Assembly (NCBI RefSeq): GCF_965641715.1
Contig: NZ_OZ282453.1
DNA length: 64,000 nucleotides
From: Escherichia coli
Lineage (GTDB): Bacteria; Pseudomonadota; Gammaproteobacteria; Enterobacterales; Enterobacteriaceae
Strand: one strand, 5' to 3'
Shown one piece after another: positions 8,409 through 54,688 of this stretch; positions within the stretch are counted from its first letter, which is position 1; every line of letters begins with the position of its first letter. Under the pieces are notes generated by a model that saw only the letters and a list, made by a program, of their open reading frames with translations, was not told the origin of the DNA and ran no database searches. The translations under genes were made by a program, and so were the position numbers.

Positions 8409-8953
8409 GCCTGATGCGCTACGCTTATCAGGCCTACAAATTCTCGTGCCACTCGTGGGCCGGATAAGGCGTTCACGCCGCATCCGGCAATGGTGACAAA
8501 TGCCTGATGCGCTACGCTTATCAGGCCTACAAATTCTCGTGCCATTCGTGGGCCGGATAAGGCGTTCACGCCGCATCCGGCAATGGTGACAAATGCCTGA
8601 TGCGCTACGCTTATCAGGCCTACAAATTCTCGTGCCATTCGTGGGCCGGATAAGGCGTTCACGCCGCATCCGGCAATGGTGACAAATGCCTGATGCGCTA
8701 CGCTTATCAGGCCTACAAATTCTTGCGCCACTTGTAGGCCGGATAAGGCGTTCACGCCGCATCCGGCAATGGTGACAAATGCCTGATGCGCTACGCTTAT
8801 CAGGCCTACAAATTCTTGCGCCACTTGTAGGCCGGATAAGGCGTTCACGCCGCATCCGGCAATGGTGACAAATGCCTGATGCGCTACGCTTATCAGGCCT
8901 ACAGATTCTTGCGCCATTCGTAGGCCGGATAAGGCGTTCACGCCGCATCCGGC
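8409..8953. repeat. Tandem REP/BIME array, about six copies of a 93-bp unit
   Basis: unit starts at 8409, 8502, 8595, 8688, 8781 and 8874; each unit carries two imperfect palindromes; copies differ at a few positions. Confidence 0.9.
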
Positions 8954-33384: not shown

Positions 33385-36300
33385 TTATTTCTCCTCCGCG
33401 TCTTCAGTCTCTGCAGCAACGGCGTTAATTGTCACCTTCACAGGCGTCATTTCGTACCCGCCATACGTCAGTGCGTTGAATGTGAACGTATAGACACCTG
33501 GCTTGCTGGTACTAAATGTACGCGTGATTTTCCCACCTGAGAAATGGTCAGCCTTCGACGGCAGGAATTGATAATCCTTCTCCGTCACTCCTTCCGGAGC
33601 CTCAATGTCGACCCACATACTTCCTCCTACGGGATTGACTCCCGCCATCAGGGTAACCGTCATTGTTGCAGTAGTCTTCCCGTCCGCCACCAGAGAATCT
33701 ACACGTTCTGGAGATGCGGCGAGCACCGCGTTTTTATCATCCGCGACGAATTTAGATTCAGCAGTTTTCGTCGATACCTGACCGTTGGCCTGTTCCACTT
33801 TCGCCGTGAGTGTATATGTCGCTGCGATAGTGGTAGAGCCGGTGAAAACAGCCTGTCCTTGCTCATTAGTTTTCGCCGTCCCTTTAGGATCCAGAACTAA
33901 ATTTTCCGAGCTGGCAGTCAGCGTCACGTCGCTATCCTTCAACAGGTTGTTATTGGCATCAGTCACCGTAACTTTATACGTTTGTTTGGTTTTGCCATCC
34001 GCCACTGCACGGTTGCCAATCACCTCAATACTGGAGATGGTCGCCGTAGTCTTATCGGCCACAAACGTTACAGACTGCGCATTTGAAGGCTGGTCATTTC
34101 CTGCCGACGCCGTGATCTCATACGTTCCGGCAGTCACGGAGACCACTTTCAGTTCCGCTTTACCCTCCTTGTCGGCGTTCACCATGATATTACCGTCTGC
34201 AAGCGGTTTGACGCCCCGAGGCAGATTAAAGACGACCACAGCGCCAGGCAGAAGGTTGCCGTATTGATCCTTAACCGTTGCCGTCAGCGTAAAGGCATCA
34301 TTGTCGTTTGCCACTTTTGGCGTGCTGCCATCAACCTCCAGGGTCGCCTGACCGGTACTGAAATCCGCCTTGAATTTCACCGTAACCGTCTTCTGAGCAT
34401 TATTCACTGAGGCCGTGATGCTGTGTTCCCCGGCAACCGTTGACATAAGCTCAATGTCCACTTTCCCTGCCGCATTGGTTGTTACTGTATTCCCCGTCTT
34501 GCTGGTCACACCCTGCGGTAAAGTCAGCGTAACTTCTTGCCCCTGCAACGGGTTACCATAGCTGTCCACGACGGTCAGGGTTATCTGGTTAGCAGACTGT
34601 CCATTAGCCAGTTGGTTATTAACCTTCACTGTCATATCACGAATCTCAGCCTTAGATGCGTCACCTGCAACGTTCAGCACCAGTGGCTGAGCAACGGCAT
34701 TTTGGCCGTTCACTCGCGGCATCACAGACAACTGACCCGCGGCAGATCCCAGCGTTAAGGTCGACACGTAGACCCCATTACCTTTCTCTGTCCAGTTTCC
34801 TGCTGAAGGACGCTCACTCCCCGTGCTGGCGGCACCGCTAAACACTGGTGCATCTGGCTTCAGCCCGGTGACCGGGTTCCCGTACGCATCCTTCACGGTG
34901 AAGGTGAGTTCCGTCGTCGTTTTGACGGTCGGAGCCTTATTGTCCGCAACAAGCGTAGAGTTCGCTGATGACATCTCTCCGGCGATGACCGTCAACTGCG
35001 CGGCTTCGGTGGCTGCTGGCTGGCCGTTGAAGAGAGGCATGACGCGAAGCTCGCCCGTCTTTCCACCTGTAGTCAACGTAGCAACATAGGAACCGTTACC
35101 TTTTTCGGTCCAACTGGAAACGGTCGCCCCTTCAGAGGCGGTCCCCGTCAAACTTGCCGACAACGCAAGACCACTGATAGCGTTGCCATGCGCATCTTTC
35201 GCCACCAGCGTCACGGTTGTGCTTTCGCCGGCTTTTACGTGATCTTCTGCGACAGAGACTTTCGACTGGTTTGAAGATAACGCATCAGCCACCACGGTTA
35301 CTTTTGCCGCATTTGCTGCCGCATTCTGTCCATTTAGCTTCGGCATAACTTCTAATTCACCCGCCGTAGAGCCGAGAGTAATCTGCGCAGTCCACGTCCC
35401 ATCACCATTATTTGTCCAGCCCGATGCCGTAGAACCTTCAGCAGCGGCACCCGCTAATGACGGCGCTTCCGGCGTGAGGCTGGTCACAGGGTTGTCATAG
35501 GCATCTTTTACCGTCCAGATTGCCGTAACTGTACCCCCAACCACCGGTTTATCAGGATTCAGGGTGATGGACGAATGTGCTGCATCAAGCGGCCCGGCAA
35601 CAAACTTCAGCGTTTGTTGTAATGTGCCCAGCTGATACTGCTCGCTGAAAGCACGCACAACAACGTTTCCGGCACGGGTCGAAGAAACCGTGGCGCTGTA
35701 AACGCCTGGTTTTATTTCCGAAATGGCACCAACGGTTACACCATTAGTGTCTTGCGGAACAAATCGCAAGCGGCTGGCTTCTCCCGTCACCGGATTACCC
35801 TCGGAGTCCACCGCAGTCAACGTCAACGTATAGGCTTGCTGACCATCAGCAACCACGTCACCTGACGGCTCGTTAGCGCTCAGGGTGGAGTTTGCCACAT
35901 CCATCATCGTGGCCCGCAGTTCTGCAGTGACGGTTTTGCTCATGCCATCAACGCTAACAGTAATCGTTGCCTCACCTGACTGCGTTCCGGTAGTAAAGAC
36001 AGACTGATACACCCCTGCTTCAGTTTCGGTGAACTCACCCAGTGTTGGCTTTGCCTGTGATTTAGTGGCCTTCAGGGAACGAGTCACAATATTTCCAGCC
36101 GGTTTGAAAGTTAGTTCAGTCTTGATCTGATCTTTCATGCCCGTGACTGGCTGGCCCTCGGCGTCGCGCAGAGACAGCACCAGCGGTTTTTGCTCATTAC
36201 CGTTAGCAAGCATTTGAATACGGCTCTGACCGTCAAGCGTTAACGCCGTGCGATCGGCGCTCATACCTGCTCCGGTAATGACCACCTCTGTCTGCACGCG

Positions 36301-37635
36301 TTTTGAGGCATTGTCTTTGTTATCGTAGGCAACCGCAGAAATCGCATAATAATTGTCTTTGCCTGGACGATAAGCCGGGAGCGTTACTTGCCACTGACTA
36401 CCCTGACCGGTAATTTTGCCACCTTCAGCCAGTAATGACGGCGCTTCCCACTGCACATTTTTCAGTCCGTGAGTTGCTTTGCTGACCACAAGCCCCAGGG
36501 AAAGTGTCTGACCGCCCTTGCCTTCAATACGTTCAGGCAGAGCAATACGGATCACTTCAGATTTGCGGTACTCAAGAACGATGTTGTTATTACGCTCAAC
36601 CAGGTCATAGCGGCTGCCTGCCAGCATTCGACGCTCGCGAATGCTGTCTGTATCGAGTTGTTTCTCCAGAGGTTCGCCAATCCGATAATTAACTTCCAGG
36701 CCAAAGCGAGTGTCATTCTCACCACTCTTGCCCTGCTTATGCCCGGCACTCAGGGTCAGAAGAGGTACTGGCGTGTAATTCACTTCAGCGGTAATCGCAT
36801 GTGGATCTTTCTGGCGTTTATCTTTGCCAAACAGCCCGACTTCATCGCCATAATACTGCTCATACATCAGGCTTGCGCCAAGCTGCGGCCAGGCGGGTAA
36901 ATAGCCCTCAGCACGAATATCCCAGCCATTCGCCGGGCGTTCCTGATAATCCTCAACATCCGGCGATTTTTTCCAGCCAGAAGCCCGAATATAACCATTG
37001 GCGCTCAGTTTCAGATAATCGCGCCAGTATTCCGCACCAACACCAATGCGGGTATGACTACGGGATAAATCATGGTCGATAAAGGTGTTCACCCCCGCCA
37101 TCCAGTCATTTCCTGAAAAATGACGCCAGCCAAAACCAATATTTGACTGAGTACGATCGTCTGTACGATGTATTGCTCCCTGAGTGAACAACATATTTGT
37201 TGGCGTATCATAAATCGGATAAAGCATTTCCAGCGAAGAATCCTTCAGCGAGAAATCTTTATCGACATTCAGTTTGACGCGCGCAGTACCGTATTTCCCG
37301 AGCCACTCCTGTATTTCCTGGTTAGCTTTAGCGGTGGCCATTCCGGTAATAAAATTACGTGTCGCATCGCTATCTGGCTGACTGCTTAAAAATGTCCCGG
37401 CATTTGCGGCAAACGACGCGACATTTTTCTCCACGTTATTATCAGCAGTTACCGTAGTATTTCCCATGCTCAACCGTGGCTGAACAGCATGCTGCGCACG
37501 TGCCGCCATTACTGGGGTAAAAGTGACTGCGAGTGGAAAAAGAACCTGAACAGAGATATTTGCCCACGCCACGCAGCGGGCCAGAACTGAATAACGAAAT
37601 CGTGGTTGTTTATGACCTGTTTTATAACGTGACAT
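33385..37635 (-). CDS. eaeH: Intimin/invasin-family inverse-autotransporter adhesin (FdeC/EaeH), full length
   Basis: 1416-aa ORF; N-terminal signal and beta-barrel region, then many ~100-aa bacterial Ig-like repeats. Confidence 0.88.
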   Translation of the reverse strand: MSRYKTGHKQPRFRYSVLARCVAWANISVQVLFPLAVTFTPVMAARAQHAVQPRLSMGNTTVTADNNVEKNVASFAANAGTFLSSQPDSDATRNFITGMATAKANQEIQEWLGKYGTARVKLNVDKDFSLKDSSLEMLYPIYDTPTNMLFTQGAIHRTDDRTQSNIGFGWRHFSGNDWMAGVNTFIDHDLSRSHTRIGVGAEYWRDYLKLSANGYIRASGWKKSPDVEDYQERPANGWDIRAEGYLPAWPQLGASLMYEQYYGDEVGLFGKDKRQKDPHAITAEVNYTPVPLLTLSAGHKQGKSGENDTRFGLEVNYRIGEPLEKQLDTDSIRERRMLAGSRYDLVERNNNIVLEYRKSEVIRIALPERIEGKGGQTLSLGLVVSKATHGLKNVQWEAPSLLAEGGKITGQGSQWQVTLPAYRPGKDNYYAISAVAYDNKDNASKRVQTEVVITGAGMSADRTALTLDGQSRIQMLANGNEQKPLVLSLRDAEGQPVTGMKDQIKTELTFKPAGNIVTRSLKATKSQAKPTLGEFTETEAGVYQSVFTTGTQSGEATITVSVDGMSKTVTAELRATMMDVANSTLSANEPSGDVVADGQQAYTLTLTAVDSEGNPVTGEASRLRFVPQDTNGVTVGAISEIKPGVYSATVSSTRAGNVVVRAFSEQYQLGTLQQTLKFVAGPLDAAHSSITLNPDKPVVGGTVTAIWTVKDAYDNPVTSLTPEAPSLAGAAAEGSTASGWTNNGDGTWTAQITLGSTAGELEVMPKLNGQNAAANAAKVTVVADALSSNQSKVSVAEDHVKAGESTTVTLVAKDAHGNAISGLALSASLTGTASEGATVSSWTEKGNGSYVATLTTGGKTGELRVMPLFNGQPAATEAAQLTVIAGEMSSANSTLVADNKAPTVKTTTELTFTVKDAYGNPVTGLKPDAPVFSGAASTGSERPSAGNWTEKGNGVYVSTLTLGSAAGQLSVMPRVNGQNAVAQPLVLNVAGDASKAEIRDMTVKVNNQLANGQSANQITLTVVDSYGNPLQGQEVTLTLPQGVTSKTGNTVTTNAAGKVDIELMSTVAGEHSITASVNNAQKTVTVKFKADFSTGQATLEVDGSTPKVANDNDAFTLTATVKDQYGNLLPGAVVVFNLPRGVKPLADGNIMVNADKEGKAELKVVSVTAGTYEITASAGNDQPSNAQSVTFVADKTTATISSIEVIGNRAVADGKTKQTYKVTVTDANNNLLKDSDVTLTASSENLVLDPKGTAKTNEQGQAVFTGSTTIAATYTLTAKVEQANGQVSTKTAESKFVADDKNAVLAASPERVDSLVADGKTTATMTVTLMAGVNPVGGSMWVDIEAPEGVTEKDYQFLPSKADHFSGGKITRTFSTSKPGVYTFTFNALTYGGYEMTPVKVTINAVAAETEDAEEK

Positions 37636-44583: not shown

Positions 44584-45056
44584 ATATCTATTACTCTCCC
44601 GAGAGTAAAACTATCAAATCAATGAGTAACTGATACAGCCTCACAAATTCTTTCAGATAATTAACCCGTCACTGCGGCACGTTCTCTCATAAGGCGTGCC
44701 TGCAGTGTAATCCAGTATGTATCCGGCATAGTTGACGGTTTAATAGAGCTCAATTCCTCGCCCAGGTTACCAACAACGATATCTTGTATAACACCCCAGG
44801 AGATACGACATTATGATGAGATGCGATATGCTCCTCAGCGCCAATCAACGCCAGGACTGGGCCAGTCTTGAGATCAGACTCATTCCCGGAACTGACTTCA
44901 GGCGACATATATCAATGACGTTGGTGCAATAAAAGATAGCCGATGTAATACATCTATTCAAATTTGTGATACATATCAAAAAATTGGTTGACCAAACTCG
45001 TTATTTATATAAGGGCACTTACGAAGTGCGCTCTTTTTTAAAGCGAGGAAGTACCA

Positions 45057-45158
45057 ATGAAAGAGAATAAAGTACAACAAATCAGTCATAAACTGATTAA
45101 TATCGTTGTTTTTGTCGCAATTGTAGAATACGCCTATTTATTTCTCCATTTCTATTAA
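45057..45158 (+). CDS. ykgR: 33-aa small hydrophobic protein (YkgR-like)
   Basis: ATG with GAGG-type RBS (aagcgaggaagtaccaATG); MKENKVQQISHKLINIVVFVAIVEYAYLFLHFY has a single predicted TM helix. Confidence 0.5.
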   Translation: MKENKVQQISHKLINIVVFVAIVEYAYLFLHFY

Positions 45159-45491
45159 TAACGGCAATAAACTGTTCACTTCAGTGATATTTAAAATATG
45201 CATCCTCTCCCTTTTTGTAAGTAATTATTATATCCGTGGGAGAGGAATACACGCTGTCAGGTAATCAATCATACTGCGATAAATCATCGGCCAGTAAAGT
45301 GGAGATAACCTCCATTCTCGAAAAATCCATACTCTCAGCGAAACTATCATCAATCACTCATCCAGGCGTTTATGGGAGCGTCGCCAATGGCTGTTAACAA
45401 TGCCAGAGTTCCCCGTTGAGGAAATTCCACATACCACTAATGGTCACAGGGATTGGGTGTTGAAATGATCCGGATGAGCATGTATCTTTAT

Positions 45492-45513
45492 GGTTATGTT
45501 ATAACATAACAGG
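45492..45513. promoter_or_regulatory. Zur box upstream of ykgM-ykgO
   Basis: perfect 18-bp palindrome gttatgttataacataac, 9 nt upstream of the ykgM ATG, matching the Zur operator core TGTTATA-TATAACA. Confidence 0.8.
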
Positions 45514-45521
45514 CAAAAATG

Positions 45522-45785
45522 ATGAAGCCCAATATCCATCCTGAGTATCGTACTGTGGTGTTCCACGACACCAGTGTTGATGAGTACTTTAAAATCGGCT
45601 CGACTATCAAAACAGACCGTGAGATTGAGCTGGATGGCGTAACGTATCCGTACGTAACAATTGATGTCTCTTCGAAATCGCACCCGTTCTATACAAGGAA
45701 GCTGAGAACAGTGGCATCAGAAGGAAATGTTGCACGGTTCACCCAACGTTTTGGTCGTTTTGTTAGCACGAAAAAGGGGGCATGA
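45522..45785 (+). CDS. ykgM: Ribosomal protein L31 paralogue, type B (zinc-independent)
   Basis: 87 aa [18 protein letters not shown]; lacks the CxxC zinc ribbon of L31. Confidence 0.9.
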
Positions 45786-45925
45786 TGAAAGTCCTTAACT
45801 CTCTGCGTACCGCAAAAGAACGCCATCCAGACTGTCAGATTGTGAAGCGAAAAGGACGGCTATATGTGATTTGTAAATCTAATCCACGCTTTAAGGCCGT
45901 TCAGGGTCGTAAGAAAAAACGTTGA
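45785..45925 (+). CDS. ykgO: Ribosomal protein L36 paralogue (zinc-independent)
   Basis: 46 aa [46 protein letters not shown]; start overlaps the ykgM stop. Confidence 0.85.
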
Positions 45926-45976
45926 TTTAAAATTCGACGAATTAACGATATTTGTCTGATTAATAATCAGACCGGA

Positions 45977-46013
45977 TTAATGTTGGTGTATTTATTACAC
46001 CAGCATTAATTTT
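45977..46013 (+). terminator. Intrinsic terminator after ykgO
   Basis: 14-bp stem ttaatgttggtgta/tacaccagcattaa (one G-U pair), 5-nt loop, then TTTT. Confidence 0.6.
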
Positions 46014-46940
46014 CCTGGGGATGTATCTTCCTGTTCATTTAAGGTCAACTGCCTGACGTTTCTCTCCGAATATTCCATTATATTAATGTTGACTTGTTGA
46101 CCAGCTTCGCCCCTGTATGCTGGCATCAACCCTCTTTTAGACTGAACACGCCACTCAGTTTCCTCCCTTTGCGACGCAGCCTGCATTTACACTCAAACTG
46201 TTAAGATGATAAATGTGGTAAATCTGTTGGTACTGACATAAAAACGTTTACGCCACAGGAACGGCCTGATCCACCGGTAACCCCGTCGCCGACGTTCGAG
46301 TGCCAGTTAGAGTAACGCGCACAGATGACTGAATGCAGTGCCCTGGCAAAGAGGCCATCGTTCCGGTGACAACTGGCAGTCTTCGTTTAACTTCACTTAA
46401 TCTGGCTCTTAGGGGGCTTACCGGACAGATGACGTACTTACACCTGTTTAATTTTTCATCACTTATTGGGATGAACACCCATAACCATTTTGTGCGGCAT
46501 GTTAACCCATTAAAACACCTTACTGATTGGCAAATCATCTTTAATTATGACTCATGATAGTTTTATATTCTATTTCTTATCATTTAGACTTGTTTTTTTA
46601 CTAGTCCATTACACAACACATTAAGACTATTCCTAACATCTCAGGGCAAAGTTCCTGGCTAATATAAAATGCAAGTAAGAATTGAACGTTATATTGCCAA
46701 TAACCTTATGAAACTGAATGTCTTTTTCTTCTTATCAAAAAAGCAATATTTTCATTTTTTGTAAATATTGACTTAACCATGGAATTCATTTTCTGTTCAC
46801 ATATTGACACTCATCAGGAAAAAAACATAAATTTAAACCTAATCGAAATAATTAAAACTTAATCTCGTTTAACCTATATTGATATGTGCTACGTATCTTA
46901 TTTACTTCCGATTTACTAAAGAAACTGAATGTACCTGTAA

Positions 46941-54464: not shown

Positions 54465-54497
54465 CCCCGCCAGCGATAATAGCGGGGCTTCGTTTTT
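54465..54497 (+). terminator. Intrinsic terminator after ykgJ
   Basis: stem ccccgc/gcgggg with 11-nt loop, followed by cttcgTTTTT. Confidence 0.6.
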
Positions 54498-54644
54498 CAG
54501 GGGTAACAAAACCCGAAACTTCTTCTATTTGCCAGCAACAATGCCTCTCTTCTGTAGCGTTCTTCGGATCTACATCATCCTAAAGTAGCGCGATATACTC
54601 ACTGACTATCTGAATCAGAATATAAAAAGCAATGTTTTTAACCT

Positions 54645-54676
54645 ATAAAAATGGCGCTGTATTTGCGCCATTTTTA
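54645..54676. terminator. Bidirectional terminator between convergent ykgJ and yagU
   Basis: 8-bp stem aatggcgc/gcgccatt flanked by an A-run upstream and T-run downstream. Confidence 0.65.
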
Positions 54677-54688
54677 TCATTCAATGCA

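Follow-up and report, generated by a model that had tools for sequence, protein, structure and literature searches.

The ykgM-ykgO operon of an Escherichia coli chromosome, its Zur operator and a G59R allele of bL31B

The 64 kb stretch of Escherichia coli DNA analysed here (the window) carries two short consecutive genes for ribosomal proteins on its plus strand, ykgM (45522..45785), coding for a type B bL31 of 87 aa, and ykgO (45785..45925), coding for a type B bL36 of 46 aa. With its RefSeq start, ykgM matches the NCBIfam type B L31 model NF002462 at 117.3 bits (cut-off 86) and PF01197 at 82.1 bits (cut-off 27), and its product is 99% identical to K-12 YkgM. The same is true for ykgO, whose product scores 91 bits against the NCBIfam type B L36 model NF002021 (cut-off 70), also matches PF00444, and is identical to the K-12 protein (RL362_ECOLI). 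Of 5,426 complete E. coli genomes, 5,061 have a match to the 701 bp locus, with ykgM and ykgO annotated there, and about 13 copies of the gene pair from complete E. coli assemblies are on records that are classed as plasmid. Overall, we assign the region, with a probability of about 0.95, to the Zur-repressed E. coli ykgM-ykgO operon that codes for zinc-independent paralogues of bL31 and bL36.

The corresponding K-12 operon (b0296/b4506, coding for bL31B/bL36B, with operator PL31p) has the same genes in the same order with the same one-nucleotide overlap, and it has the same neighbours, namely ykgR upstream and ykgL and ecpR (of ecpR-ecpABCDE) downstream. This ykgR-ykgMO-ykgL-ecpR region is inverted relative to K-12, and the claim of an earlier sequence-only reading of this DNA that the locus anchors strand and orientation stands. 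However, there are 28 differences from K-12 over the 701 bp. The window departs from K-12 by a G59R substitution in YkgM, by a T to C change at 45514, by an ATG rather than a GTG at 45782 and by a frameshifted ykgL. The surroundings also differ upstream of ykgR, where K-12 has ykgP and eaeH pseudogenes and IS3 while the window has, between 33385 and 44583, an intact fdeC-type ORF of 1,416 aa (33385-37635) and genes for a LysR regulator, an alpha/beta hydrolase and an NADH-dependent flavin oxidoreductase, an arrangement that is alike in strain D8. Elsewhere in the window there are five tandem matches to Rfam naRNA4 (nucleoid-associated ncRNA 4, CssrE) on the plus strand at 8458-8899, 93 nt apart and scoring 78 bits each, as well as a full-length Rfam IS009 match on the minus strand at 54484-54683 (189.8 bits).

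Both gene products have lost zinc ligands that are present in RpmE and RpmJ. YkgM is without any cysteine, with the CSC and CSKC motifs of RpmE aligning to TSV and SSKS, and YkgO retains two of the four ligands of the RpmJ C-x2-C-x12-C-x5-H site, with the first Cys replaced by His and the His replaced by Phe. Judged by these residues, YkgM and YkgO are the zinc-free forms of bL31 and bL36. Type B L31 chains are present among the PDB structures listed, and bL31B and bL36B are both modelled in the E. coli ribosome structure 6i7v, in which YkgO is chain 6i7v_C5. The two forms of bL31 are reported to have different effects on growth and on reading-frame maintenance (bL31A vs bL31B; PMC7363858), and L31p is reported to repress expression of L31 (rpmE) (PMC9825181).

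Closer comparison of ykgM with its relatives revealed that codon 59 (45696-45698) is AGG (Arg) in the window instead of GGG (Gly), which turns HPFYTG into HPFYTR; K-12 and strain D8 both have G at 45696. All 4,790 complete E. coli genomes with a match to a 62-mer at this position are one base off, and none of them has G59R. Among close bL31B cluster representatives, 129 of 130 have glycine at position 59, as do 114 of 117 bL31B representatives at 50% identity, where the three exceptions are proteins with a length outside the usual 86-88 aa. The glycine is also present in RpmE and in the Pseudomonas aeruginosa bL31B of structure 8rd8. Arg59 of the window protein thus replaces a near-invariant residue, the glycine of an HPF(Y/F)TG motif located where the chain leaves the N-terminal domain, although this glycine is not a formal criterion of the family. 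By its model score the window YkgM still classes as a type B bL31, with G59R being an allelic deviation.

The second change lies just ahead of the gene. A Shine-Dalgarno-like AGG for ykgM can be read on the plus strand at 45511..45513, and the base directly after it, 45514, is C here vs T in K-12. Among 5,040 records from E. coli, eight have this C, four of them being O157:H7 Z18xx strains, and it is also found at the related draft locus L006. If the AGG functions as supposed, the T to C change would remove one potential pair between the Shine-Dalgarno and anti-Shine-Dalgarno sequences. There is also an extra in-frame ATG (45519-45521) three nucleotides before the annotated ykgM start.

Since G59R affects a conserved glycine and the rare change at 45514 is near the Shine-Dalgarno-like sequence, bL31B, and so the protein side of the remodelling unit, may be less than fully wild type in this lineage. 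The best surviving alternative to our main reading extends this to a locus where regulation is normal and YkgO is normal, but where G59R together with the 45514 change makes ykgM a weakened or altered-function allele, so that the bL31B gained on zinc starvation would work poorly or be poorly expressed. The rarity of both changes, the conservation of the glycine and an unchanged ykgO are all in its favour. What speaks against a weakened gene is that the ORF is intact and still reaches 117 bits on the type B model, and that the allele persists, which a tolerated or even selected variant explains better than a dead gene does. Specifically, the exact G59R protein is found on 41 public contigs. Three draft assemblies (L003, L005 and L006) code for the same YkgM and have only 2-4 differences from the window in about 6 kb, while another locus (L004) codes for the same protein with two synonymous differences in ykgM and with flanks that are about 5% diverged. 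Because L003, L005 and L006 share the protein with the diverged L004, G59R is a natural allele that occurs on at least two backgrounds. On balance we consider the alternative rather unlikely. We are similarly doubtful that this lineage has a non-wild-type L31 paralogue for zinc starvation, whether by decay of ykgM or by selection for an altered bL31B. The idea that the window is altered or is not E. coli DNA was also considered, and it was rejected given the existence of the near-identical drafts L003, L005 and L006; among complete E. coli genomes none exceeds 99.3% identity over the 701 bp locus.

Regarding the junction of the two genes, the ykgM stop codon TGA (45783-45785) and the ykgO start codon ATG (45785-45787) share one base in the sequence TGATG, and a G-rich, Shine-Dalgarno-like AAGGGGG is located 6-8 nt upstream of ykgO. 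The earlier description of a one-nucleotide overlap is thus exact with the RefSeq starts, but the ATGA junction given with it is not, as an ATGA with its 4-nt overlap is what an alternative start at 45782 would give. Such an extra in-frame ATG does exist three nucleotides before ykgO (45782-45784), where K-12 has GTG. As a separate observation, nine proteins of 128-152 aa have both L31 and L36 Pfam domains. These apparent ykgM-ykgO fusions could be frameshift or assembly artefacts at TGATG or could be real, and most of them come from short metagenome or read-assembly contigs.

Upstream of ykgM lies GTTATGTTATAACATAAC (45493-45510, no strand assigned), which a script check verified as the perfect 18-bp palindrome that had been noticed from the letters; the symmetry is lost when one more base is taken in on each side. 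It is an even repeat of 9+9 with arms that adjoin without a spacer. It escaped an inverted-repeat search that required arms of at least 12 nt, because its own arms are only 9 nt long and adjacent. The distance from its end to ykgM had been given as 9 nt, and this needs correction to 11 nt when counted to the annotated ATG (45522) or to 8 nt when counted to the first in-frame ATG (45519). Palindromy alone was rejected as evidence for an operator, as about 0.31 perfect palindromes of at least 18 bp are expected by chance per 64 kb. The significance of the site therefore comes from its match to Zur sites and from its position.

The match to Zur sites was assessed with the structure-based purine/pyrimidine skeleton RNNNYRNNRYNNYRNNNY and the 20-nt, two-dimer IUPAC pattern TGWNAYRWTATAWYRTNWCA of Gilston et al. 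(PMC4219657). GTTATGTTATAACATAAC agrees with RNNNYRNNRYNNYRNNNY at every R/Y position and has the central TATA. The 20-bp site that surrounds it (45492-45511) matches TGWNAYRWTATAWYRTNWCA at 19 of 20 positions, and the one deviation, a G in place of T at position 1, is also present at K-12 ykgM. Within two mismatches this pattern has one site in the 64 kb window (0.18 expected), and the 18-mer itself has no second match in the window even when up to three mismatches are allowed (0.01 expected). A position weight matrix scan, which had been proposed as a check, was also run using a symmetrised, leave-one-out matrix made from the K-12 znuAC, zinT and pliG operators only, with ykgM excluded. With this matrix the ykgM site scores 23.3 bits, next to 23.6-25.9 bits for the training sites and 13.7 bits for the next best position in the window. 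Forty simulated windows gave maxima of 13.3 +/- 1.9 bits, the highest being 17.9.

An exact-DNA scan of species-representative genomes found GTTATGTTATAACATAAC in at least 120 other genome stretches, where by a rough calculation about 4 matches in 298 Gb would be due to chance. The 80 exact matches listed are from Alpha-, Beta- and Gammaproteobacteria or from unclassified proteobacterial MAGs. Alpha- and betaproteobacterial carriers include Bradyrhizobium, Pelagibacter, Thauera, Castellaniella and others, and among the matches listed several genomes have two or three exact copies. When 150 of the first ORFs on either side of the matches were scanned against Pfam, the commonest families were 24 cobW-type GTPases, 14 FUR family members, 10 ABC ATPases, eight ZnuA, five FolE2, five TonB-dependent receptors, four ZinT, four L31 and two ZrgA. 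The gene families that flank the 18-mer across Proteobacteria are those of the zinc-starvation regulon. Three independent tests (the Gilston motif, the leave-one-out matrix and the zinc-regulon association) thus identify the palindrome as a Zur operator, as its resemblance to the Zur operator core had suggested in the sequence-only reading.

The operator has also been conserved in a way that connects it to published work. The 57 bp from 45457 to 45513, which contain the putative promoter and the operator, have no differences from K-12 while the 74 bp that precede them have nine, and 3,051 of 5,051 E. coli records have the 57-bp block at 100% identity. Results obtained with the K-12 operator carry over to the window because of this identity. 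In K-12 the operator is bound cooperatively by two Zur dimers, with an apparent Kd of 0.025e-18 M^2, the tightest among the four operators, and 560-fold repression in vivo at the L31p operator, and it is the most perfectly palindromic operator and among the tightest binders (PMC4219657 and its Table 3). Expression of a ykgM-lacZ fusion rises about 1000-fold when zur is mutated or TPEN is added (PMC7297116), and calprotectin induces ykgM about 2,500-fold and ykgO about 1,000-fold in E. coli Nissle (PMC10410751). The zur gene itself is absent from the 64 kb window.

Analysis of the region between 45200 and 46200 gave one sigma-70-like site, a 9/12 consensus match that alone is not significant, as 2.6 such sites are expected in shuffles. 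It is composed of a -35-like hexamer TTGAAA (45460..45465, plus strand), which is inside the 57-bp conserved block, and a -10-like hexamer TATCTT (45483..45488, plus strand) after a 17-nt spacer, with a predicted start near 45495. K-12 and the divergent locus L004 both have this TATCTT. In the literature we found a mapped start for Yersinia pestis but none for E. coli ykgM, and for this reason the hexamers and the start of the ykgMO promoter are still inferred. Between the -10-like hexamer and the 18-bp core there is an offset of 4 nt, and the core extends over the predicted start. The earlier statement that the palindrome overlaps the likely promoter needs correction as to the hexamers, which it does not overlap. 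In the Y. pestis orthologue the Zur sites do overlap the -10 (PMC2706843), and a Zur footprint of the reported length of about 30 bp would reach both the -10 and the start site here.

The predicted start bears on a second alternative, in which the palindrome would act mainly at the RNA level as a 5' mRNA hairpin that controls stability or translation, instead of or besides being an operator. A start near 45495 would place most of the palindrome in the 5' UTR, and RNA from 45493 to 45535 folds into a 7-bp hairpin with an MFE of -8.6 kcal/mol (z -2.9). However, any perfect palindrome would fold in this manner. In addition, the 18-mer recurs ahead of unrelated zinc genes, in many cases in the space between two divergent genes, which fits a protein-binding DNA site, and direct binding of Zur to this operator DNA has been published (PMC4219657). 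We thus consider a mainly RNA-level role very unlikely. Rfam, searched at gathering thresholds over 45000-46300, gave no hit, and hence no known leader or riboswitch. Finally, the notion that the palindrome serves another Fur-family regulator, such as the iron sensor Fur, rather than Zur has in its favour that Fur-family boxes are all AT-rich inverted repeats and that the 14 FUR-family neighbours are Pfam assignments, which alone cannot separate Zur from Fur, but it merits next to no credence given that the other neighbours are zinc specific (ZnuA, ZinT, ZrgA, FolE2, cobW-type GTPases and C- type L31), that a central TATA is reported to separate Zur boxes from Fur boxes (PMC4219657) and that the zinc-operator matrix scores the site about as high as its own training sites.

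Downstream of ykgO there is a 15-bp hairpin (45976-45990/45996-46010) whose arms have 93% complementarity in the inverted-repeat search and which, with the U run that follows, forms a putative intrinsic terminator of ykgMO at 45976..46013 on the plus strand. The hairpin folds at -23.5 kcal/mol (z -5.9) vs -22.2 kcal/mol for the K-12 version, from which it differs by one G.U pair changed to A-U. Its AU-rich stem is followed by UUUU only or, should the stem open at its AU end, by UUAAUUUU. A consensus terminator scan called no terminator after ykgO. In PMC7297116 (Fig. 2A legend) a terminator is drawn there. We regard a terminator at 45976-46013 as plausible. The earlier description of a strong terminator is borne out as to a stable hairpin but is overstated in the word strong, since the U tract is short and the consensus scan was negative. 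A second small hairpin (GTCTGAT-TAATA-ATCAGAC, 45955-45973) is located between ykgO and the main hairpin.

The main hairpin falls within the 3' end of ykgL, a convergent ORF on the minus strand (45995-46186) that codes for 63 aa vs 75 in K-12 owing to a 1-nt deletion near 46026 and that is annotated as frameshifted in strain D8. Calprotectin is reported to induce ykgL along with ykgM and ykgO (PMC12279244), and this reported induction might stem from the 3' UTR of ykgMO, or from read-through, and not from a zinc-regulated gene of its own.

Taken together, the locus would operate as follows. With sufficient zinc, two Zur dimers loaded with Zn would bind 45492-45511 cooperatively and the operon would be silent, with RNA polymerase presumably being blocked because the operator lies just after the -10-like hexamer and over the predicted start. 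When cytosolic zinc is low, Zur would release the operator and the operon would be transcribed into one short mRNA, with ykgO probably being translated by coupling at the TGATG stop/start overlap and with transcription probably stopping at the hairpin at 45976-46010. YkgM and YkgO would then displace the zinc-binding RpmE and RpmJ in ribosomes, and YkgM would also repress rpmE. For Zur binding, for the size of repression and for incorporation into ribosomes this model draws on the literature for the identical K-12 operator, while the gene identities, the loss of zinc ligands, the identity of the operator, its conservation and the association with the zinc regulon come from the present analysis. 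The genes, the operator and the K-12 literature all agree with the sequence-only reading of this locus as the known zinc-starvation ribosome-remodelling unit, in which only minor points of position were wrong, and none of the results speaks against this identification.

Zur-dependent derepression, upon zinc starvation, of a C- paralogue of a zinc-ribbon ribosomal protein is also known from Bacillus subtilis (YtiA/RpmEB) and from mycobacterial C- ribosomal proteins, of which PDB 6dzi is an example. These Gram-positive and mycobacterial systems have other operator consensus sequences and other gene sets, which in mycobacteria are S14, S18, L28 and L33. Another known system is ykgM-rpmJ2 of Y. 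pestis, where a C- type L31 and an L36 are coded for by one operon under direct repression by Zur, with footprinting and primer extension showing a Zur box that overlaps the -10 and blocks RNA polymerase (PMC2706843). Note that start site and footprint were mapped there in another species. Within E. coli, the K-12 znuA/znuCB, zinT and pliG operators share with the ykgM site the RNNNYRNNRYNNYRNNNY skeleton and the central TATA, and they are likewise bound by two Zur dimers (PMC4219657). The even 9+9 form of the ykgM site resembles the alpha-proteobacterial consensus GATATGTTATAACATATC that is quoted in PMC2706843, and it is unlike the 11-1-11 form given for gamma-proteobacteria.

The locus is a solid annotation anchor that identifies the window as E. 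coli chromosome, and it adds nothing to the established Zur/ykgMO model. This switch serves as a biosensor for calprotectin/zinc and is studied as a case of ribosome heterogeneity. With the switch being already known, the G59R allele is the minor new lead that comes out of the analysis. If bL31B is indeed not wild type in this lineage, then G59R might alter the B1b/B1c intersubunit bridge or the repression of rpmE mRNA by YkgM. The allele is a ready-made natural variant for probing a conserved glycine in an intersubunit-bridge protein.
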